From: a virus
Lineage: Duplodnaviria > Caudoviricetes
Length of the DNA: 64,000 bases
Virus record (IMG/VR): IMGVR_UViG_3300037512_001142
Span: 1-64,000 of that record
Direction: 5' to 3' (one strand)
The translations under genes and the position numbers were made by a program. The notes beneath the pieces are model-generated. The model was not told the origin of the DNA and did no database searches. It saw nothing but the letters and a program-made list of their open reading frames with translations. Positions 957 through 63,806 of the stretch are shown in pieces. The stretch's first letter is position 1. Every line of letters starts with the position of its first letter.

Positions 957-983
957 AAAAACCGGATTATTTTCCGGTTTTTT
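957..983. terminator. intrinsic terminator between convergent genes
   Basis: AAAAACCGGA-TTATTT-TCCGGTTTTT hairpin. Confidence 0.7.
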
Positions 984-1146
984 CTTTTTTCCAGTATTTA
1001 TCAGCCTTCCGATTTCTGGTTGGCTCATTTTCCATTTCTTTTAGCTTTTGCTCTGCGTAATCGTCGAAATTTATAAATTCACGTCTAATAAGTTCGATGC
1101 GATAGCCATTATTTTCCAAGATCTGTGTAGCTTCTTTAAGTTGCAT
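967..1146 (-). CDS. small protein with shared leader (MQLKEATQILENNGYRIE)
   Basis: ATG at 1146 preceded by AGGTG SD (ORF track starts at GTG 1155); last gene of the nrd unit. Confidence 0.6.
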   Translation of the reverse strand: MQLKEATQILENNGYRIELIRREFINFDDYAEQKLKEMENEPTRNRKADKYWKKEKTGK

Positions 1147-5159: not shown

Positions 5160-6643
5160 ATTTCCAACTTTGTTGTGATAACTGGGAACTCCTGTTCGAT
5201 GTAGTAATTCGAACGTTCGTCAAAATGTTGCATGCAGTAATTCTTGGCGATACGACCAGTACGCTTCTTGTAGCTGAGGTCGTCGACAATATCATAGATG
5301 ATAACTTTGTTCTTGGAGTTATGCTTACGAAGTCCACGACCGATAGACTGAAGAACCTTGATTCTCGACTTGGAATTCGAGAACAACATAATCGCATGCA
5401 ACTTAGGAATATTGACACCAGTCGACATGGTTTGATAAGTAGCAAGCAAAATAGTTCCGTCCTCGTCTTCAATTCCGGTACGAATCTCTTCACGAACCTT
5501 GGCCTTGACATCGCCAGTAATGATACTTACCTTCTTGTCAGGATAATTCTCATGCAAATAAGTTTCAACGTCCCTGAGATGGTTCCTGTGGTTGACAAGG
5601 ATAAGCATGTTGTTCATCGGCGAAGTATGGTCGATAATAAAATTCAAAACCTTATTCCTGTTCGGATATTCCTCGACCATCTTGACTTCTTCAGGATAAG
5701 TTCTTTCCTTGTTCTCGGCAATGAAAGCCTCAGGATATTTGAGGAAGATTGCCGCGATATTCAACTTAGTCAAGTAACCACGAGCAATGAGCTCACAGGA
5801 CTTCAATTCAAAAAGAACATTTCCAATAACGCTGTTAATCTGGAGCTGTTCGGAAATTTCGGTAGGCAAAGTACCAGACGTACCAATCTTGTATTCCGCG
5901 TTATGCATCAACTTCAGAAGTCGGGTAACGACAGAACACTTGGCCTGGTGACATTCGTCGACCACGCATGCGTCATATACTTCAAAAAATTCCTGGTCTT
6001 CCTTCTCAAGACTCTGCCAGGTAGAAATCAAAATCTCTTTCTTAAATGTCGGCTTCTTTCCGGAATAAAGCATTTCAACATGGTCTTCCAAATCGTCCCA
6101 GCCATAATCCTGGAAGTCAGAATACATCTGTTCGACAAGAGAAACAGACGGAACGATAAGTATAGCCCTATGTACGTCCTTATTATCCAATAGATAGCGC
6201 AGGAACGTGTAAATCATCAAAGACTTGCCAGAACCAGTGCAGGATAACAAAACGCCTCTACGGTTGGTTAATGCGGCATGAACGGCGTTAACCTGATAGT
6301 CACGAGCCTGGAATCCTGCCGTAATATAGGAATTCATCTGCTTTTCCAAATCTTCCTTATCAATTTTATCAGTCAGTCCGTCCTTGAATCCCTGTAAAGA
6401 ATACTGGATATTATGCTGGTCACACCAGATAAGAAGGTTATTCAGAAGGCCGATAGGCAAAATCTGGGACATCGGATTATAACAACGAACCTTACCATCC
6501 CAGACATGCATCTTAAAACGCGGATTAAACCTATAACCCGGCGCATAAGCTGAAAAAACGTTGTAAATTCTATGGCTTAAACCATCTTCGCATACCAAAT
6601 GTACGCACGAGGAGTTCACTTTCTCAATAATCAAATCACTCAT
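5156..6643 (-). CDS. uvsW: UvsW-like SF2 DNA helicase
   Basis: TGSGKS, VDECH, GTSGT, STGVNIPKLH, LQSIGRGLR; likely start MSDLII at 6643. Confidence 0.93.
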   Translation of the reverse strand: MSDLIIEKVNSSCVHLVCEDGLSHRIYNVFSAYAPGYRFNPRFKMHVWDGKVRCYNPMSQILPIGLLNNLLIWCDQHNIQYSLQGFKDGLTDKIDKEDLEKQMNSYITAGFQARDYQVNAVHAALTNRRGVLLSCTGSGKSLMIYTFLRYLLDNKDVHRAILIVPSVSLVEQMYSDFQDYGWDDLEDHVEMLYSGKKPTFKKEILISTWQSLEKEDQEFFEVYDACVVDECHQAKCSVVTRLLKLMHNAEYKIGTSGTLPTEISEQLQINSVIGNVLFELKSCELIARGYLTKLNIAAIFLKYPEAFIAENKERTYPEEVKMVEEYPNRNKVLNFIIDHTSPMNNMLILVNHRNHLRDVETYLHENYPDKKVSIITGDVKAKVREEIRTGIEDEDGTILLATYQTMSTGVNIPKLHAIMLFSNSKSRIKVLQSIGRGLRKHNSKNKVIIYDIVDDLSYKKRTGRIAKNYCMQHFDERSNYYIEQEFPVITTKLEI

Positions 6644-7886
6644 AATATAATTCCTCTGGTACCTCGTCAAGATGGGCCAATACGAATCGCTTGTAGTATT
6701 CCGCCCAAGGCGTCTTCATGTATTCACGAGCCAGTTTCAAATCGGTCTGATTTAACTTCTGGTTATGTGAAGCATCGACTTCCTTGACAGGTGTCATCTT
6801 GTATGCACAACGCATGGCATTGAAGTTATCATCCAAGATTCCGTCATAATATGTATAATAATCCTCAAGTGGAAATTTGTATAAACAGTGTGGAGGCCAG
6901 AGCCTTACACCCGCAACCCAACGGACTATATTTTGGGTCGGTTCCATCCATGTCCCTAAGACATAATAAGGGTCCGCGATATGTTCGGTCATCATGTGTT
7001 CGACAATATACGGATCGCAAAGGTCGTCGTCGTCCAACGTAATAATCGGAATATCCGGATATTTCTCCATCGTAGGATCCAGTTTCTTCAAAGGTCTAGT
7101 GTCCTTGTCCGTCCAAAGAACTTCGAAGTTCGGATAATCCCTTAGCATATTCTGAATACCTTCCGGCAGAATAAACTTGTCTCCGAATTCTTCTCGACTA
7201 AGAACCATTATAACCTTATAGTTAAATCGCGTGTCCTGCTTAATCAATGACGAAATCACATGCAATGTGGTAGAATCATAGATTCGACCACGGAACGTCG
7301 TGAAAGACACGATTACGTCAAAATATTCAGATGACCAGAGACGCTTATTTCGCATAATCCAGTCGATAAATACCTTTTTGTCGAGAATGTCATTAACCGT
7401 AAGAAGATATGCACCGCAGCTCTTCATAAGCCAGTTATCACAATCAAGGATATTGCTATACAAATCGTCGGTATCATTTACATAGGCCTGAACATTTTCT
7501 TCACGTATCTTCTGCATATTCAGGTATATCATCTTATGATGTTCGTCGATTACAGCTCGAGCGCTCTTGTCGATAAATTTTTCCAAATCGCACTTGACAA
7601 GACTCTTGTTATCGATAATAATCATGTCATCGGTCTTACAATATTTCATAAGTTCTTCGACTGCATGATTATAAATCTGAAGACCTGTCATACTGGAACT
7701 GTCGAAATACTTATAATGCCTGTTACGCAAGAAAGTCACGTCATCTACATGATTGATAATCGGTCTGTCCTGGCCAGCATCAAAAACCACGATTTCATAA
7801 TCGAACTTACACTGTTTCCTGATACTGGCTATCAGGTAATAAACGTGGTGCGGCAAATTATAATTGATTATCCCTAATGTAATCAT
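6636..7886 (-). CDS. two-domain GT-A (GT2-like) glycosyltransferase
   Basis: N-terminal YYLIASIRKQ..YEIVVFD; second domain VIVSFTTFRGRI..KKLDP..PIITLDDDD; probable start MITLGII at 7886. Confidence 0.7.
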   Translation of the reverse strand: MITLGIINYNLPHHVYYLIASIRKQCKFDYEIVVFDAGQDRPIINHVDDVTFLRNRHYKYFDSSSMTGLQIYNHAVEELMKYCKTDDMIIIDNKSLVKCDLEKFIDKSARAVIDEHHKMIYLNMQKIREENVQAYVNDTDDLYSNILDCDNWLMKSCGAYLLTVNDILDKKVFIDWIMRNKRLWSSEYFDVIVSFTTFRGRIYDSTTLHVISSLIKQDTRFNYKVIMVLSREEFGDKFILPEGIQNMLRDYPNFEVLWTDKDTRPLKKLDPTMEKYPDIPIITLDDDDLCDPYIVEHMMTEHIADPYYVLGTWMEPTQNIVRWVAGVRLWPPHCLYKFPLEDYYTYYDGILDDNFNAMRCAYKMTPVKEVDASHNQKLNQTDLKLAREYMKTPWAEYYKRFVLAHLDEVPEELYYE

Positions 7887-9375
7887 AATCAAAACTTTTG
7901 AATTTATAGTTAAACTTGTCAAACAGATAATTAAAGACCAACGACTTATGAGTATATGCAGCCTGGAAGAACACGCTATTATACTTGTCGAAATCCTGAG
8001 GAAGGCAGATACCGTATTTCTTGTAATCAATTAACTCATACTTGAAATCCTTTATTGTCTCGATAAACTGCAGTGTCGTCTCAAACGTAATTCCGAATTC
8101 CTTCATCATCTTGATATTGAAAATGTTAATATATCCGGAATTCTCACCATTATAAAGCGTACCTGCCCAGATGTTCTTCGCGTCGAAACTTATAGGCTTG
8201 TTGAGAATAATCTTGTCGCCGATGACATAAAGAATATCGGCTTTCGTAGTCTCTATCAGATGTTTCAATGTCTGGTCGAAACGTTCCGCACCATACAGAC
8301 GGTTCGGATTATAAGCTGGTTTCTTTTCAAATATCTGGTTCTTATTATTGTAATCGATTGTCACCGGAACAGTCTTCTTAATCTGCGGAAGCTGATTGAA
8401 GATGTGTTTTTCATAGAACTTCATATCGATGTTGTCAACGATACGAATCTTGGAAAACAGGTGGGAAGTCAAATTACAGATATTATTGACGTTCTCTATC
8501 GTGATATAGTGATTGAACGAATTAACGAACGCGATTTCCATATTGGTAGAACAAAGGTCGAAATTGAAATCGGCCAATGAATAATATGGAAATACTTTCT
8601 CCCATTTCGTCTTACTATATGCATGGTCCTTGAGATACTTAACTACGTCATTATCAAAAGACATATAGTTATACGTCTTTTCGTCGATATTCTCATAGTA
8701 ATAATTCTTGTTCACGTTATTGACTATAAAGAGAATAGAAAAATAATTCGATAACGAATTATACTTGGATATATCCGCATCCAGCCATGTAGATTTTACA
8801 AGATATGCCGGAATGTAATAGTCTTCACGTAGCGGGTTTGTCAGCATTTCGCCATGGATTTCCTGGATAGTGCCTTCAGTCTGTAAATAATTGAAAATCG
8901 ACTTATTGTAATTGTATCTCTGAATAAGCTTACTATATGAAAGGCTGTAAACCATCTTATCGCTTGTATAAGAGGGTTTCATGGTCACATAGTTGCTATA
9001 TGGATTTAGAACATAAATGTTATTATGGAGGTTTTCCTTCAATAAGGTATAAAGGTCATTCTCTTTATTAATGTCTGTATACTTGAAAAATACCAGAATA
9101 TCACTGAACAGTTTTAATACATTCTGTAAAGTCGGATCTTTATACTGCTCTTCTGTAACGGTTTTATCGGCATAAATGTATATACGGTTAAACTTGATTT
9201 CAAGATTAGTTATGACCCAACACAGGTTCTTAATTCCGTAGCTCAATTCTTGGGAATTTACAGACAAAAATCCGATATTATTTTTATCGGATTCAAGCTT
9301 CTTCAAAGTTCTGGTTTTTATATTTGTTAACTTTGGAATATTTCTATACAACTGTTCAAATTTTTCACTAAACAT
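7858..9375 (-). CDS. hypothetical protein, possibly a degenerate glycosyltransferase
   Basis: 505-aa Tyr/Asn-rich ORF overlapping the GT gene; weak GT-like C-terminus (TKADILYVIGDKIIL); AAGG SD. Confidence 0.5.
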   Translation of the reverse strand: MFSEKFEQLYRNIPKLTNIKTRTLKKLESDKNNIGFLSVNSQELSYGIKNLCWVITNLEIKFNRIYIYADKTVTEEQYKDPTLQNVLKLFSDILVFFKYTDINKENDLYTLLKENLHNNIYVLNPYSNYVTMKPSYTSDKMVYSLSYSKLIQRYNYNKSIFNYLQTEGTIQEIHGEMLTNPLREDYYIPAYLVKSTWLDADISKYNSLSNYFSILFIVNNVNKNYYYENIDEKTYNYMSFDNDVVKYLKDHAYSKTKWEKVFPYYSLADFNFDLCSTNMEIAFVNSFNHYITIENVNNICNLTSHLFSKIRIVDNIDMKFYEKHIFNQLPQIKKTVPVTIDYNNKNQIFEKKPAYNPNRLYGAERFDQTLKHLIETTKADILYVIGDKIILNKPISFDAKNIWAGTLYNGENSGYINIFNIKMMKEFGITFETTLQFIETIKDFKYELIDYKKYGICLPQDFDKYNSVFFQAAYTHKSLVFNYLFDKFNYKFKSFDYDYIRDNQL

Positions 9376-9414
9376 ATAAACCTTTCACTAGTAAATATAG
9401 TAAAAAAATATTTA

Positions 9415-9819
9415 CTATCTATATATTCTTCTACCGAAAATTCCAGCAATTACTCCATTATTCGATACGTATGGTATCTGGAACGAAACACACTGGGCAT
9501 TCGGGTCGACCGATACCTTCGTATTAGCACGGTCTATCTTTACTGGAACCCAAACCTCTATCGTATCATAGACATAAGGCATGATATTATCGATATTCGA
9601 GCTATTCTCGAACAAGAGGTTAAACAGAGGAGTTCCAAATGTTGGGTTAAACAGTCTTTCTTGTGGTTCTGTTGTCAAAACCATCTCAATAGACTGGTTT
9701 AGCGAATCCATGCCCCAGATTTCATTATCATGAAACATGGCGTCCCAATCATAATACTCGTTAGTTAACGAAAAGTTGTCATTTGACAAATAATCTGAAT
9801 TTGCGCTTAATGCTAACAT
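9415..9819 (-). CDS. gp25: baseplate wedge subunit gp25 / GPW family
   Basis: SLNQSIEMVLTTEPQERLFNPTFGTPLFNLLFE signature. Confidence 0.9.
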   Translation of the reverse strand: MLALSANSDYLSNDNFSLTNEYYDWDAMFHDNEIWGMDSLNQSIEMVLTTEPQERLFNPTFGTPLFNLLFENSSNIDNIMPYVYDTIEVWVPVKIDRANTKVSVDPNAQCVSFQIPYVSNNGVIAGIFGRRIYR

Positions 9820-9839: not shown

Positions 9840-12800
9840 ATGGTTATAACACACAAGACTAATACTAAGCTCGAAGACGCATACTACAACATCAAATGGC
9901 GTTTAGATAGTGCCGGAATTAAATATGAAACTGAAAATAACATAATTCCGCAGTGGGATCCTAATGCAAAAGACGAATTCGGAAACCAGCTTCCTAAGCC
10001 GGACCCATTTACCGTAGGTACCGGTACGGCTTGGATTAAGATTTACTTCGAAGACAGAAAACAAGTCTTTGTTTATTTCTGCTGTCATCTTGTCGAATGC
10101 CGCACCTGTACCTATGACAGGTTTATTACCGTGTATAACTATACTGATGACGTCAAAGACACTAACCTTCAGGGTATGGTTCCGGCGTTGACACTTAAGT
10201 ATTATGGCGATAAAGCCGAAAATGACAGTGACCGTACAATTTATTTCGACATGATTAATTGTACCGAAGATGGTCCATTGTGTTTCAGAAAACCGCGTTC
10301 TCTTGCCGATACAAAAGTCAACAAGTGTCAGACTTGTAACGGTAGTGGTAAAATTAGTCAGCAAGTAACTATTCCTTCAAGACCTGGCCAAGGCGGCAGT
10401 GGTCATATTACAATCGAAAATGAATGTCCGGATTGTCATGGAACTGGTTATGAAGATTCAGAAACTGAAATTTGTACCGCATGTGATGGTAAGGGTACAA
10501 TAGAAAGTACCGTAACTGTACCTTCTGGTAATCCATATAAAAAATCAGTACAAATCAAGGTTACTTCTACTTGTACGAACTGTAACGGTTCTGGTAGAAT
10601 AAGTAAAACTACTTCTGATGACTATTGTATCATATCTAATCTTGACCTCTATAATTTCTATGTAAAGAAATCACAGACTGAACGTGATGTCGTTGATAAT
10701 CGTATCAATGACGGTATGCGTATTCGTGAAGACGGTGCCAATGCAGAATATGATTATTCTGATAAGAATGAAGGTGGTTTACGTAAGTTTGCAAAGCGTC
10801 TCTTTTCAAACGCTAATACCTATGACCCTGAAGATGTACCAGTAGATGACCTCACAAAGATAACAACGTTCAATACTGAAATTTATATTGACCCAGATAC
10901 TGGCAAACCGTTATCTACTATTGAAGAACTTTATGAATTGATTGCAAAAACAAGTCTTAATAATGAATATGCGGAAGATTCTGAAAAAGTTGACTTAAGC
11001 AAATACATCTTCCCTATTCCAGTATTTAAACAGCACTTAATACCTGGCGATGATGATACTATTATAACTGACTATAAAATAGAAAAATTAACTTTCTATC
11101 AAACAAACTATGTAGACCAACAAGGAAACCTTATTCCATTGACGGTTTTCTTTAATACCAGTAATACCAGTTCCTTTACTGATTTGGTCAATACTCAAGA
11201 CTATCTTGCCGTTACTGACTTATTCACTACACGAGCAGGATTTGCGCAGAGCAATATTTTTCCTACACGTTATGAAGGTAGAACCTATGCATCTGATGGT
11301 GTTAAAAACTTTATCAAGCACTGTGGCGAAGTAGAAATTTATGCTGATCCAAATAAATTTTCCAATAAAGTTATTAAACCATATATTAAAACGTTCACGA
11401 ATATATCGCAGACAGACCTAGTTTGGAATTTTATCTGTTTTAAAGATAAAAATCTTCCGATTATTCCTGTAGAACATAATACGCTCTATATCAACCAGTC
11501 TAATACACCACATACCATTGACCTGTATAAGGAAAATGTTACACATTTTGATAATATTCTTTCTCAGAAAACAGCGTCATATGCCGAACCATTGGATAAA
11601 CCAATGGTAACTCCGGATTCATATCCATATATTGAACCGGATTCTAAAAACGTATATACTATTGATTATTTTAAAGGCTCGTGTTCTATTACGTCTTTTG
11701 AAAGTCTATCGGGTGAATCTCCTGACAGTTTGTATTTTACTGGTATATCGAACAATAATACATTAAATTTTGATCATGAAGGCATAGATCCTACGTATGA
11801 TTATGAAGACTGGCCAGATTATCTTGATGGCATTACATTTAAAAATTACACGTTAAATCTATTATTTACATTTACGGCACGAATTAAATTTAATAAAGTC
11901 GATAAGCATATCGAACCAGGGTCATACGCTGATACAGTATTATCAATCAAAGTTGGTCTTCTTGATACTGCAGCAGAGTATAATGAAAAACCATTAATTA
12001 TCTGTAACCGAACTATAGATGTTGATATGCCTACTGAAGGTCATATTGACCCAGATGACCCAACAAAGCTCTATTATGATTGGCCGGATTATGTAAACGA
12101 AACTATACAGGCTTATGCAACTCCAACTTTAATTAATGAAGCCTACCAACATTATGATGGCAGTGGTGAGTTTGTGTGTCCGTTAAAACACTGTCGCCTT
12201 GTGGTATTCTGTGAGCCATTTAAACCAGACTCGGCAATAGCAACTCCAAGTCCATACAGTTTAAATCCTGGTGATTTTAGTCTTGAACTTGATTTTACAT
12301 TGGCAACAAATATTTATCCGATCCCCGTAGAAAGCACTCCAGGTTATCCTCTTAAAGAAGGTGCTACTAATGTCGTATCTATTCCAAAAATAAAATATAA
12401 CTATAATAATTATCCTGAAGGTATATTTAGCTATTACCACAAGAATTTCGGTACATATATTGAAAATTACATTTTTAACAAGTATCATGCAGTCAGTGGT
12501 AATAGTGCTATTCCTGAAGGTGCTGGATTTTTAGATACAGTATATAATGAAACAGATAAACGTATGGAGTTTGTGCCTGATACTATCGAATCCCAGAAAA
12601 AATATAAAGGATTCATGAATATTATCCATGACAATAAATTACGCTCAATTTACGTAAAGCAAGATACTCGCAACGATTATATTGTTTGTCCCGCATGTAA
12701 TGGTAACGAAAAAATTAACTGTCCGACCTGCGGTAATAAGCGTAAGCTCAGTCTCTATGATTATAGTGGCGATACCTGTCCTATCTGTAATGGAAATACT

Positions 12801-33359: not shown

Positions 33360-34028
33360 TTAGAATGTCTGAATGAACTCTTTAAATGCGTCCAGAATGG
33401 CCTTAGAACCCTTCTTATCGACTTCCTTATTGAAAGCCTTCTGGCCAGCGATAATACGTTCACGCTGTTCAATGAAAAGTCCGGTATTTTCGTTAAGAAC
33501 CCACTTGGAAACATACTGTACGGATTCATACATAGCGTCAGTATAAGCGACCTGGGCAGATGGCATGTAAACCGAGTCGATTGTGACAAGGTTATAGTCG
33601 TCAGCGACCATGTTGCCTTCGGTCAAATTACCGGTACCACGAGACGAAACACCCATACGAACACCGTCGAGCAAGAGAGATTCGAGGAGCTTGCCGTTAG
33701 GAGTATGCAAAACCTTTGCCTTACCCATAGCGAGATTACCGTCCATGTGAAGATCAGTAATCATGATTGCTGCTTCACGAGGGTTGATTTCGATTGTTTC
33801 AGGGTGATTGAGTTCGCCAAGAGCTTCACGTGATTCGATGAGCTTCTGGAATTTATTAACTTCACGTTCAATAATTGCCTTAGAATAAGTACGACCATTA
33901 CGGTTTACTTCTTCAGCCATCATGAACGGACCACTGATATACATGGTCTTCATGTTGTTGCCAGCATCTTCAAGCATAGATTTTGCTTCAGCGCAGGCTT
34001 CTTCGCACAATAGCTTTTTTGCTTCCAT
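33360..34028 (-). CDS. gp21: prohead core protease
   Basis: ISGPFMMAEEVNRNGRTYS, ALGELNHP, GVSSRGTG; start at ATG 34028 with GGAG SD and TATAAATA 34056-34063. Confidence 0.95.
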   Translation of the reverse strand: MEAKKLLCEEACAEAKSMLEDAGNNMKTMYISGPFMMAEEVNRNGRTYSKAIIEREVNKFQKLIESREALGELNHPETIEINPREAAIMITDLHMDGNLAMGKAKVLHTPNGKLLESLLLDGVRMGVSSRGTGNLTEGNMVADDYNLVTIDSVYMPSAQVAYTDAMYESVQYVSKWVLNENTGLFIEQRERIIAGQKAFNKEVDKKGSKAILDAFKEFIQTF

Positions 34029-37146: not shown

Positions 37147-37196
37147 AAAATATTTATAAATAATATAAATACAATAAAAGGTTTAAGGAGATTTTT

Positions 37197-37667
37197 ATGA
37201 ACTTATTTGAAGCTAAACAAATTGCGGAAAGCCACGGTTTTACAGTTAGCAAGTCAAAGAAGGGCGGCGATGACAAGGTTCCGCCTTGGGCTAAACTCGA
37301 TGAAGGCAAGAAGGGTGGTGACAATGTTCCGCCTTGGGCTAAGCTCGAAGAAGCTAAGGCTATTGCTGAAGAAGCCGGTTATAAAGTAATCAAGGAAGGT
37401 TTCGGAACTGCTGAAGGTACACTCTTCACAAGCATTTGCGAAAAGTATATCAACAACGCATATTTCGTTACTCTTGCTGCTCAGGTTGGTCTCAAGGCTG
37501 CTATCGCTGAATTCCTTGAAGAAGTTCGCGAATGCATCGGTAAGGGCGTCAGTGCTGAATACTACAACAAGTTTGCTCTTCGTATGAAGGCTTGCAAGTC
37601 TGAATCTAAGGCATTGTTCACTATCACTAATGCAATGTTCGCTGGTCAGGGAATGGCTCTCCACTAA
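37197..37667 (+). CDS. small late protein with duplicated leader and KKGG..VPPWAKL repeats (prohead core-like)
   Basis: Tandem TATAAATA (37155, 37164), AAGGAG SD; internal direct repeat gttccgccttgggctaa. Confidence 0.8.
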   Translation: MNLFEAKQIAESHGFTVSKSKKGGDDKVPPWAKLDEGKKGGDNVPPWAKLEEAKAIAEEAGYKVIKEGFGTAEGTLFTSICEKYINNAYFVTLAAQVGLKAAIAEFLEEVRECIGKGVSAEYYNKFALRMKACKSESKALFTITNAMFAGQGMALH

Positions 37668-38575: not shown

Positions 38576-39898
38576 TTACCAAACGAGGTCAGCTTCAGAG
38601 GATTCAGCGAAGAGTCCGTTGAACTTGAGCAAGCGGTAGTAGTTTTCAGCACCGAGCATGTTGTGAGCAAAGCCATAACGGCTCATGATACCAACACGAG
38701 GGCTGAAGTCATTCGGGTCAATAGCCTGGTTGACAACACCGGTTACGTACGGACAGAAGATAACACCAGCATCATAGAGGCTAGAGCCCTTGAATGCGAG
38801 GAGAACTTCACCGTTGTCGTGTTCACCGAATTCATCAACAGCGTACTGGTCACAGAAGACCTTTACAACACCGTTAAGGGTACCCATTTCCGGAGTAACA
38901 GCAGAACCGTTAACTTCGTGAGCAACCTTGGTGAACCATGGGTTAGCGCACTGAAGAACAGTAGCAACGTCCGGGGAAACAACTGCAATGTTAGCAGCGC
39001 CACGACGAGTAGCGGTACGGATGTCGTTTACACCCTTCATGATGTGGGTGATGATCATACCGAAACGTTCCTGAGAGTTGCGGCCAATGAAGGCGTCGTT
39101 ATTGGCGAGAGTTGTATTAGCCTTGTTGAACACGCGAGGTGTGCAAAGAGCCTTACAACGACCGATAGTTTCACGGTCCATTTCAGCGGTCATTTCAGCC
39201 TGAAGGACGTTAATCATTTCAGTCATCATTTCGATACCCTGCATAGCCTTAATATCGGCAGCAGATTCGAGAGAGAAGGAAGCAGCGAGCTTACGGCTCT
39301 TAGCAACGATGGACTGGCGGCTGAGCATAAGGCCGATTTCCGGCATCTTACGGCTTACAGACGGGTCATCAGAACCAAAAGTCGGGCCAGTAATCTTCCA
39401 ACCTTCAGCGGACTGAGTGTCAACGCCGGTACCAGCGTCCCATTCACCAGACTGGTTAGCGGTAGAACCGGTATAACCAGAGAAGCGAGGAACAGCCTTC
39501 CATGCGGCTTCAACGAGTTCGTTCGGGTTATTTGTCTTATAGATGTAACGGAGTGCGAAGGCAAGGCCAACAGGACCAGTCAACGGCTGAACACCAACGA
39601 GAACGTTAGCGAAGAGCTGCGGGAACACACGACGAACGAGCGCGAGAGAAATCGGAGCGAAAACGCCCTTAGCGTCGCCACCGTGCGGAATGCCCTGGTC
39701 GAGACCAAGCGGAGCACCTACACCCTGGGTGAAATCTTCAGTGAGAAGTTCTGCACCGAGATTCTTAGTCTTCTGGTTTTCAAGAAGACGTGCGGTATTA
39801 TAACGTACAAGGGAGTCCTTGATACCAGCAACGGAAAGTCCGCCCGGTGCCTTGGCCCAAGTATCTACCATAGTAGCTTGTGATTGTGTAACTTTCAT
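38576..39898 (-). CDS. gp23: major capsid protein
   Basis: LVRRVFPQLFANVLVGVQPLTGPVGLAFALR, KSRKLAASFSLE, FCPYV, IMSRYG; TATAAATA 39932-39939 and AGGAGA SD. Confidence 0.97.
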   Translation of the reverse strand: MKVTQSQATMVDTWAKAPGGLSVAGIKDSLVRYNTARLLENQKTKNLGAELLTEDFTQGVGAPLGLDQGIPHGGDAKGVFAPISLALVRRVFPQLFANVLVGVQPLTGPVGLAFALRYIYKTNNPNELVEAAWKAVPRFSGYTGSTANQSGEWDAGTGVDTQSAEGWKITGPTFGSDDPSVSRKMPEIGLMLSRQSIVAKSRKLAASFSLESAADIKAMQGIEMMTEMINVLQAEMTAEMDRETIGRCKALCTPRVFNKANTTLANNDAFIGRNSQERFGMIITHIMKGVNDIRTATRRGAANIAVVSPDVATVLQCANPWFTKVAHEVNGSAVTPEMGTLNGVVKVFCDQYAVDEFGEHDNGEVLLAFKGSSLYDAGVIFCPYVTGVVNQAIDPNDFSPRVGIMSRYGFAHNMLGAENYYRLLKFNGLFAESSEADLVW

Positions 39899-39963
39899 TT
39901 ATTGTTTCTCCTATAAAAATCGTTTATACTTTATTTATATGAATTTTTTTGGAATTCTCGTAA

Positions 39964-40923: not shown

Positions 40924-41068
40924 TGAATCCTCCAATATATTTAGTTTTTTAAAAACTTCTATCGTTTTTATATTTTATTTATACTTGAAAAATTGGAAAA
41001 TTCGCCAAAAGACAAAAGGACCACATGATTAATGGTCCTTATTAATCTTAACTTTTTGAATATTTTGG

Positions 41069-62125: not shown

Positions 62126-62668
62126 ATGGAAAAAATAATCTGGCAAAGATTCTTCGAATCATTGGAAGACCCTTCTGGACAGAAGGGCTTGCGTCGTCTC
62201 GTCAATAATGCTAATATGCTGGCGAGCGGTTTCGAAGCTAACGGAATACTCAATGAAGCCGCAATGTCTCTTAGAAACTTGAAAAACAGCGGCAAAAAAA
62301 TCAACCTGTCAATGCATGACAGGAATATCGACAATATCCTAGTTTTCGTTTTTCTAAAATCGATTACTACGATTCCAAGAAAGACAAAGGCATACAAGCT
62401 CGGTCTTATCGACCGCAACGGTGCACTTATCCGCGAGCCCGTTACCAAGGAAGAAAATGACAGTATTTCGAATCTTGACCTTCTCATGTTCAAGCTTCGC
62501 GAATGGCTTAAACCGAAACTTCCATATCTTTCTTCCATTACCTGGCTCCAGAGCGTTTATAACAACCAGCGTATTCAGAACCAGCTTGCAAACACAAGCA
62601 TGTTGGCTCGTCAATACGTAGTCCGTCAAATAAATTCACAGCTAGACGATTTGTTAAGGAAGCATTAA
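62126..62668 (+). CDS. hypothetical protein of a type seen in T4-like phages
   Basis: KAYKLGLIDRNG motif; TATAAATA at 62111-62118. Confidence 0.65.
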   Translation: MEKIIWQRFFESLEDPSGQKGLRRLVNNANMLASGFEANGILNEAAMSLRNLKNSGKKINLSMHDRNIDNILVFVFLKSITTIPRKTKAYKLGLIDRNGALIREPVTKEENDSISNLDLLMFKLREWLKPKLPYLSSITWLQSVYNNQRIQNQLANTSMLARQYVVRQINSQLDDLLRKH

Positions 62669-62669
62669 A

Positions 62670-62912
62670 ATGACACCATGTCCTAATTGCCCACAGAAAC
62701 AACAGAATGATTACTTCAAGTATGGTTTTACGTTAATGAATGGTGCGATTTATTGGACCAAGATACCAGAAGTGAAACAGTGCTGTGCTATCAAAGTGAA
62801 ATTAATCGATCATACCGCCTCTAATGTTACCGTGGAATACGAAGGGAAGACTTATGTCAGGACCCGTAAGGATTTCATGGAATCGAGTTGGCGAGACATC
62901 GATTCCTATTAG
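62670..62912 (+). CDS. small hypothetical protein
   Basis: 80-aa ORF coupled to neighbours. Confidence 0.55.
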   Translation: MTPCPNCPQKQQNDYFKYGFTLMNGAIYWTKIPEVKQCCAIKVKLIDHTASNVTVEYEGKTYVRTRKDFMESSWRDIDSY

Positions 62913-62916
62913 TCTT

Positions 62917-63378
62917 ATGCAATATACAAACAAGAAACGCCTCAAAATCCAGGAAATTGAAATAAATGACGAGATAGCATCAAGTCTATTTCTGGAGTGC
63001 AACCGCTTATTTTTTGATAATAAAATCCCAGAAATACCCATAGAAATCATAGAAAGTGATACTATGAATGGTGATTTGAAATATGATGTTGACCTAAACA
63101 ACAAAACCATTTCAAATTATAGAATACAGATTTCAAAAAGTAGAAAAAGAACTAAAAAAGCGTTCATTTCTACTATGATTCATGAAATGTTGCACTATGA
63201 AGTAGTTTCTGAAATTCCTTATGAACGTATTGATGAAGCTGCTTGGTATTATCAAGAAGGCGACATGGATAAGTTCGATAAACTGTTATATAACAACAAA
63301 TATGCCCATACCGGTCTTTGGGCTGAAAAAGCCGACAATATAAATAAGTTATACGGCATTAAAATCAATAAGGCATAA
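62917..63378 (+). CDS. SprT-like zinc metalloprotease domain protein
   Basis: CNRLFFDNKIP, STMIHEMLH (HExxH), AHTGLW; probable start MQYTNK at 62917. Confidence 0.75.
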   Translation: MQYTNKKRLKIQEIEINDEIASSLFLECNRLFFDNKIPEIPIEIIESDTMNGDLKYDVDLNNKTISNYRIQISKSRKRTKKAFISTMIHEMLHYEVVSEIPYERIDEAAWYYQEGDMDKFDKLLYNNKYAHTGLWAEKADNINKLYGIKINKA

Positions 63379-63380
63379 TT

Positions 63381-63806
63381 ATGACAGTTGAAGAAGCAAT
63401 AAAAATTTTAGAAGAGAATGGAATGCAGCTCGACGAAGACTTCGGTATCGGCGTTGGTGCTCCTTGCGGTTTAGACCAAGGAATTCCACATGGCGGTGAC
63501 GGTAAAGGTTGTTGTCCGCAACGCATGGGACTCATGTTCCATCGTTCGCCATTTTCTGTAAATCCGTTCTTTGCTGGTGTTCCGAATGCACATCATCCGC
63601 AATACTGGCTCAATCAGATTTCAAAGAAAAAGAAGAAAAAGAAAAAGAGAAAACTCAAGGAAAGTTTCTCCGTTATTGGTACATATAACGATGATAACGA
63701 AAAAGTTTATGAATTTGACGACGGTACTTACATCCGTGAAAACATGGACGGTACCATTACTGTTGTTGATGAAGATGGAGAATCTCGTTCCTATCTATTA
63801 GACTAA
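63381..63806 (+). CDS. tagged small protein containing a copy of the mature capsid N-terminal segment and a poly-Lys tract
   Basis: MTVEEAIKILEENGMQLDE-DFGIGVGAPCGLDQGIPHGGDGKG..KKKKKKKKRKLKE-S. Confidence 0.8.
   Translation: MTVEEAIKILEENGMQLDEDFGIGVGAPCGLDQGIPHGGDGKGCCPQRMGLMFHRSPFSVNPFFAGVPNAHHPQYWLNQISKKKKKKKKRKLKESFSVIGTYNDDNEKVYEFDDGTYIRENMDGTITVVDEDGESRSYLLD

Follow-up and report, generated by a model that had tools for sequence, protein, structure and literature searches.

The locus examined here raises a simple question: why should a phage maintain, in a small gene of its own, a second copy of the segment with which its matured major capsid protein (MCP) begins? The gene lies near the right end of a 64,000-nucleotide stretch of DNA from an uncultured tailed virus (the window, which is the whole stretch analysed, positions 1 to 64,000 of the 86.7-kb IMG/VR record IMGVR_UViG_3300037512_001142), and the MCP gene lies in the same window on the opposite strand. 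The segment in question is well described in T4, where the 25 N-terminal residues of matured gp23, given as residues 66–91, form the N-fist (PMC7136217). Residues 66–105 of the matured protein (gp23*) are inside the unexpanded head and probably touch the core, and on expansion the N-fist moves outward and contacts four subunits (PMC9546572, PMC9958956, PMC7136217).

The small gene and its copy of the capsid N-fist

BLASTP comparison of the small protein with the MCP reveals a single significant segment common to both, in which residues 17–43 of the small protein match residues 52–78 of the MCP at 22 of 27 positions (E 6e-13). The fist motif is present in only two copies in the whole 86.7-kb record, one in each of these proteins. 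Within the MCP, the distance from the conserved N-arm block to E54|D55 is equal to that leading to the known maturation cut of T4 gp23 at E65|A66, and the shared segment is therefore a copy of the capsid N-fist. An earlier reading made from the letters of the window (hereafter the sequence-only reading) had noticed the match with gp23 and had taken it for a selected copy of the mature MCP N-terminus; the match is real, and comparative data support the interpretation. The two cut sites agree in spacing, and an S77 protease is encoded in the window. The locations of the features discussed here are given in Table 1.

Table 1. Features of the window discussed in the text, with positions counted from its first nucleotide
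Feature	Position	Strand	Description
Small gene	63381..63806	+	141 aa; predicted precursor of a free N-fist peptide; 56 homologues
Pro-region, residues 1-19	63381..63437	+	Helix at residues 3-12 (AF2), short and amphipathic; ends in L17-D18-E19, the predicted first protease site
N-fist copy, residues D20-G43	63438..63509	+	Near-identical to MCP D55-G78
Linker, residues 44-81	63510..63623	+	Cys/His-rich, hydrophobic; kept within family class A
Polybasic tract K82-K91, into predicted second site L92-K93-E94	63624..63662	+	Counts of tract and site across the family in text
C-terminal domain, residues 95-141	63663..63803	+	Lineage-specific; five beta strands, AF2 pLDDT ~80
MCP, Gp23 family	38576..39898	-	440 aa; Pfam PF07068 E 8e-70; T4 gp23 structures E 2e-26
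MCP N-fist (original), D55-G78	39665..39736	-	Directly after L52-T53-E54; spacing as in T4 gp23 residues 66-91
Prohead protease, Peptidase_S77 (T4 gp21 family)	33534..33995	-	Presumed processing enzyme; 115 bits, over the curated cut-off
T4-type late promoter box TATAAATA	63339..63346	+	35 nt upstream of the small-gene start codon
p180	62126..62668	+	Partner in synteny; homologue of the pro-region in long-form gp61.1 (RB43/Ac42)
p80	62670-62912		Small Cys-rich protein; position in conserved synteny
SprT-like protein	62824-63378		184 aa, HExxH motif; directly upstream of the small gene; weak match (E 8e-4), under the Pfam cut-off

There are several informative features of the copy and its setting. 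First, it is conserved as protein. Over a 28-codon segment the small gene and the MCP gene are identical at 54 of 84 nucleotides, with different codons at 13 of the 21 identical residues, and a comparison of the two fists by NG86 gives a pS of 0.84 and a pN of about 0.15–0.16, such that synonymous sites are near saturation. The saturation and the codon differences together show that the fist copy is not a recent DNA duplication, as the sequence-only reading had argued, and the dN/dS check which it had proposed for the segment likewise gives a low value, the pN/pS of the fist being 0.15 among orthologues of the small gene. Second, the elements which flank the fist are all present as first described: L-x-E precedes both the copy and the original, a K8-R tract occupies residues 82–91 of the small protein, and this is followed by a second site, L92-K93-E94|S95. 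Third, across the family the conserved parts of the protein are the fist and the basic tail. The invariant columns of family alignments A1–A3 fall within D20-G43; other short linkers stand in place of residues 44–81 in other family classes; and the C-terminal domain is confined to the closest relatives, other members ending after the tract or carrying unrelated domains there. An AF2 model of the small protein alone has the leader as one helix and the C-terminal domain as five strands, with the fist (pLDDT <50) and the linker disordered. Fourth, nothing of the capsid body accompanies the fist: Pfam gives no match to the Gp23 family (PF07068) in the small protein, and no capsid fold is seen in the AF2 model. 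Neither Pfam nor PHROG yields a family match of any kind for the small protein, and the same is true of most of its neighbors. Finally, the gene has the setting of a late gene. The box TATAAATA occurs 32 times in the window where 6.8 are expected, and it is found at like spacing upstream of the small gene, the MCP gene (box at 39932–39939) and the scaffold gene (box at 40976–40983); this shared spacing and the presence of the S77 protease gene make a context that fits a head protein.

The gene order p180, p80, sometimes the SprT-like gene, small gene, p127 is kept in the lineages denoted I and II below. The SprT-like gene is present in most class A relatives and missing in some. Conservation of p180 and p80 exceeds that of the small protein, and in lineage III the two are found at a distance of 9 kb from the MCP gene.

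The N-terminal leader has a different distribution. The sequence-only reading had described it as shared, and it is indeed present in three ORFs of the window; across the family it is not conserved, and a role as a conserved targeting signal was rejected, the leader being absent from many members. A 59-aa ORF at 967–1146 (minus strand) has a leader as in the small protein. A 156-aa ORF at 37197–37667 (plus strand), divergent from the MCP gene and with late-promoter boxes at 37155–37171, encodes two copies of the leader-like helix together with a repeated short unit of Lys/Gly/Asp-Pro-Pro-Trp.

Family architecture and co-variation with the capsid protein

The small protein is not an orphan, as it had been called, since 56 homologues are found at E≤0.01, and a 33-residue profile of the fist motif recovers 88 clusters at 50% identity among 1.84 billion representatives. 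The source phage, of ~410 kb, falls in an uncultured clade of jumbo T4-like phages with complete genomes of 411–424 kb, and its MCP is 90–97% identical to those of these relatives; the nearest GenBank MCPs are those of cyanophages at 34% identity, and tblastn finds no match to the small protein among GenBank phages. In each of three complete or near-complete relatives there are exactly two copies of the motif, one in the MCP and one in a single small protein.

The members share a common plan, although the shortest has 57 aa and the longest about 600. They begin with a pro-region (4 to ~300 residues, without conserved sequence) that ends in [LIVM]-x-E and is followed by the 24-residue fist, a linker of 10–55 residues and a poly-K/R tract, after which the protein either stops or continues through [LIVF]-x-E into a variable C-terminal domain. 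Among 131 family proteins P1 is Glu in 117, P3 is L, V, I or M in 114, and a polybasic tract (at least six K/R in eight residues after the fist) is present in 106, and 45 of the 52 C-extended members carry a second [LIVMF]-x-E no more than ~12 residues from where the tract ends (the background in random 16-residue windows is 23%), although these counts are descriptive, the proteins being related to each other and not independent trials. The pair of flanking sites on which the sequence-only reading had remarked is thus a property of the family. Lineage III departs from the plan: its fist proteins (220–515 aa; one is encoded at 10001–11320 of the piece L110 and another in L122) have a Lys/Pro-rich and then acidic continuation with no clean polybasic tract, and their genes sit outside the p180 synteny. 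Both departures count against the function that we favor below.

Several other proteins of these phages resemble the MCP in part or carry similar junctions. A search for a gp24-like vertex gene in the complete relatives gave only the MCP and short partial paralogues. In one relative (G003; L126, 146.5–151.5 kb) two ORFs of ~220 aa flank an nrdG-like radical-SAM gene and have a similarity to the MCP that is confined to its C-terminal half (Pfam Gp23 positions ~185–318); they are partial paralogues within a nucleotide-metabolism cluster. Elsewhere, at 6486–9686 of the piece L093 (record positions 66486–69686), a 1066-aa protein has an F-L-T-E|A-D-D junction like the cut site of T4 gp23, and downstream of it a 255-aa acidic protein (10219–10986; record 70219–70986) has the same junction; to judge from these junctions, both are candidates for further protease-processed head proteins.

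If the copy serves a function that depends on the capsid protein, it may be expected to change as the capsid protein changes, and five lineages allow the two to be compared. The small gene and the MCP gene are on the same contig in lineages I (this window), II and IIb, and on the same 248-kb contig in lineage III, where the pair was located by a degenerate DNA pattern (the contig reached via P0098 had no motif); the lineage IV pair was drawn from two neighboring sequencing runs of one series and not from one contig. In lineage III two otherwise near-invariant Asp residues are replaced by Asn and Pro in both the small protein and the MCP, and in lineage IV the first residues and three other positions are altered in both. 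The cognate pairing has the top summed identity across the five lineages, which is attained in only two of 120 permutations, the other of which exchanges two close relatives. Local alignment scores of nine small proteins against nine MCP N-termini form a block-diagonal matrix, with scores of 63–142 within groups and no more than 43 between them. The fist also tracks its own MCP in T4-type phages, where the gene is 61.1, and in cyanophages. That homologues should track their cognate gp23 was the test which the sequence-only reading had set itself, and tracking is what both the permutations and the matrix reveal.

The matching does not extend to the DNA. Within each pair the codons differ at 8–18 of the 21–25 identical residues (Ser, for example, being AGC in one and TCG in the other), and in four of the five lineages they differ at more than half of them, IIb being the exception (8 of 22). 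Recent gene conversion was considered as a cause of the matching and was rejected because of these codon differences. Neither is the matching residue-perfect, for in the closest clade the MCP fist is invariant and the copy in the small protein varies at about six positions, which weighs against the function favored below. Nonetheless, the co-variation provides strong comparative evidence for a putative MCP-dependent function of a free fist, and points to what may be an overlooked, conserved component of the head.

T4 gene 61.1 and possible parallels among processed peptides

The sequence-only reading knew of no described equivalent of the small protein, and this statement needs to be qualified. 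Searching the T4 genome with the fist region of gp23 reveals a second copy there also, and it is gene 61.1. The 54-aa product has a leader resembling the capsid targeting sequence (CTS) of internal proteins and ending in I-K-E, a copy of the fist, and a K4 tract, and it matches gp23 residues 57–93 at 17 of 37 positions (E 6e-9). Homologues of gp61.1 are present in 1389 phage records, and the fist design is also that of 44RR, RB43 and Ac42, whose pro-regions reach about 110 residues. In cyanophage S-RIM2 the 183-aa product of SWTG_00149 carries a copy of its own MCP fist almost at its start, followed by a basic tract; its gene precedes that for primase by two genes, and a gene of this type is kept in 283 cyanophage records. 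These genes, annotated without function or mislabelled, all share with the small gene of the window a pro-region ending in hydrophobic-x-Glu, a copy of their own fist, and a Lys/Arg tract. The labels 'major capsid protein', 'major head protein' and 'precursor of major head protein' appear on them in GenBank (Acinetobacter phage Minot, Klebsiella phage Miro, Cronobacter phage SemperBestia, and cyanophages S-RIM2, Syn33, Syn30 and S-MbCM25), a misannotation that arises from the similarity of the fist. In the literature searched there is no functional study of gp61.1, and neither a link of gene 61.1 to the capsid nor a free capsid-fist peptide is described.

The correspondence is one of design. 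The window protein has no detectable sequence similarity to the gp61.1 types, because each fist follows a different capsid protein, and it differs from them in its longer linker, true K8–K12 run, second cleavage site, C-terminal domain and late promoter. The T4, 44RR, RB43 and Ac42 proteins match the profiles phrog_1823 (gp61.1) or phrog_2086 (the RB43/Ac42 form), and the window protein does not. The locations differ also. In T4, 44RR, RB43, Ac42 and S-RIM2 the fist gene immediately precedes the primase gene or is no more than two genes away from it, whereas the small gene of the window is not beside a primase gene and has p180, p80, the SprT-like gene and late genes as its neighbors. Gene 61.1 of T4 sits in a cluster of early and middle genes with no late-promoter box within 3 kb, a location that counts against the function favored below.

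A second connection is provided by p180. This protein matches the RB43 protein (E 6e-8) and the Ac42 protein (E 2e-6) by tblastn, and it matches phrog_18642 (E 3.5e-9) and the N-terminal domain of phrog_2086 (positions 5–86; E 3e-7); the fist module of RB43 and Ac42 is therefore joined in one protein to a p180-like domain, which here is encoded separately, two genes upstream of the small gene. The p180 model is all-alpha. No structural relatives of it are present in the PDB or BFVD libraries, and a protein atlas search returned unnamed viral clusters only. T4 gp61.2 was considered as a homologue of p180 and rejected. With no PHROG or Pfam match, the case for common descent with T4 61.1 rests on the architecture and on the p180 fusion link, and we regard the small gene as a probable distant counterpart of gene 61.1 that cannot be assigned to the gp61.1 family by sequence.

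The window protein may also be compared with peptides that are released during head maturation. The T4 internal proteins are loaded by ten-residue CTS leaders, which gp21 removes (PMC9026906). IPI, IPII, IPIII and Alt are small, basic proteins trimmed after (L/I)-x-E with mature parts that vary, and the window protein is predicted to resemble them in all of these respects and in being loaded into the prohead; Alt is also cut at both ends (PMC9026906), as predicted here. At the sequence level, the two elements of a CTS-type pathway, a propeptide ending in L17-D18-E19 and a gene for a gp21-family protease, are both present. The leader of the window protein bears no resemblance by eye to a T4 CTS, whereas that of T4 61.1 does. 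Moreover, the T4 internal proteins contain no capsid copy and their targeting signal is the leader that is removed, whereas in the window family only the fist and tail are conserved and the leader may be as short as four residues. The adenovirus proteins pVII, pX/Mu and pVI offer another parallel, as basic, DNA-associated core peptides that are released within the capsid by the adenovirus protease; both virus and protease are unrelated to those considered here, and none of the three copies a segment of a capsid protein. A further parallel is the N-fist of T4 gp23* itself, which directly follows a maturation cut, as the fist of the window protein is predicted to do, and is equal to that fist in length within a residue or two. 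The T4 fist is tethered to an HK97-fold body, and that of the window protein to a predicted DNA-binding tail.

Possible roles of a free fist

We propose that the small gene encodes the precursor of a protease-trimmed, head-associated peptide with its fist at the capsid N-fist site and its tail on DNA, and on balance we lean towards this reading of the sequence comparisons. We infer that the precursor would be made late and would enter the assembling prohead, where a gp21-type protease would cut it after E19 and after E94 and so remove the variable pro-region and the variable C-terminal domain. The product, retained in the head, would have ~75 residues and would consist of the N-fist (24 residues, as in the matured MCP), the short Cys/His-rich linker, and the lysine tract at its end. 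Since the fist is matched to its own MCP, it most likely shares a binding site with the capsid N-fist, and it would occupy this site before expansion, on the scaffolding core within the prohead, or after expansion, on neighboring capsid subunits; the basic tail would contact packaged DNA. The second of these locations, including a stoichiometric role bound to the shell, is weakened, because no extra fist-like density is reported in the published T4 capsid work consulted and a search of the complete relatives found no fist-less gp24-like gene. The latter finding also leaves without support the idea that a vertex protein lacking a fist provides an empty site for one, and a role in filling vacant vertex sites, which the sequence-only reading had offered among others, is likewise weakened.

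Could the fist be without function, a remnant of a partial duplication or recombination of the MCP gene? The bare similarity is all that would suggest so. Each complete genome has one small copy in conserved synteny, the pN/pS is 0.15 with near-saturated synonymous sites, and the gene is found across three deep T4-like groups; these conservation data already refute the idea, to which we attach a negligible probability. A functional fist need not, however, be a structural one. It might regulate assembly, setting shell-core contacts, the size of the head or the time at which it expands, by competing with the N-termini of capsid proteins, or taking their place, on the scaffolding core or unassembled MCP; the peptide would then be degraded or exit. 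The region 66–105 of T4 is thought to touch the core and mutations at 66, 94 and 97 alter head length (PMC9546572), co-variation with the MCP suits a shared partner equally well, and the fusion of all-alpha p180 to the fist in some phages is as expected of a core-like partner. Nonetheless, we think such a regulator unlikely, for it leaves the near-universal polybasic tract without a role, and the exactness with which both flanks would be removed suggests a core peptide that is product and not waste.

The peptide might alternatively act on the protease, as an abundant pseudo-substrate bearing the capsid cleavage junction that buffers or delays processing of the MCP. The junction is copied down to P3 and P1 and an S77 protease is present, but conservation reaches ~24 residues past the cut, far beyond what a protease site needs, other predicted substrates nearby have an L-T-E|A type site with no fist, and the basic tail and second site go unexplained; a decoy or timer of this kind is distinctly improbable. 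Several defence systems sense capsid proteins, and a free capsid N-terminus could sequester a host sensor of newly made MCP, with the flanking domains as diversifying effector or cargo parts. The location of T4 61.1 among early and middle genes would suit this, as would the hypervariability of those domains, which is also seen at T4 internal-protein loci. Yet the small gene has a late promoter and a late-gene setting, the family-wide protease sites and the predicted DNA-binding tail point to the capsid interior, and Pfam and PHROG searches find no defence-related domain in the small protein, and we consider counter-defence very unlikely.

The favored reading of a processed, head-associated peptide can be extended to all T4-superfamily phages, each with one free N-fist of its own MCP joined to a DNA-binding tail and acting as a structural coupler, the fist relocating, as the capsid expands, from inside the prohead to sites between capsomers, with the tail on DNA. 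We regard this broader proposal as possible but doubtful. If it is true, the peptide would anchor the genome to the shell or couple the entry of DNA to the expansion of the capsid, and it would represent a new class of head component, one that escaped notice for decades on account of a size below the reach of gels and standard proteomics.

T4 head assembly is among the best studied of all such pathways, yet gene 61.1 has no assigned function, and the same design recurs in a clade with a capsid N-terminus that has no sequence relationship to the T4 one. New here are the distant clade, the matched substitutions, the two-site excision design, the true polylysine tail and the p180 fusion link, together with the correction of a recurrent 'major capsid protein' misannotation. 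The hypothesis is directly testable in T4, and in T4-like and jumbo phages that have not been cultured, a copy of the fist with a basic tail between protease sites may serve as a marker for processed head peptides.
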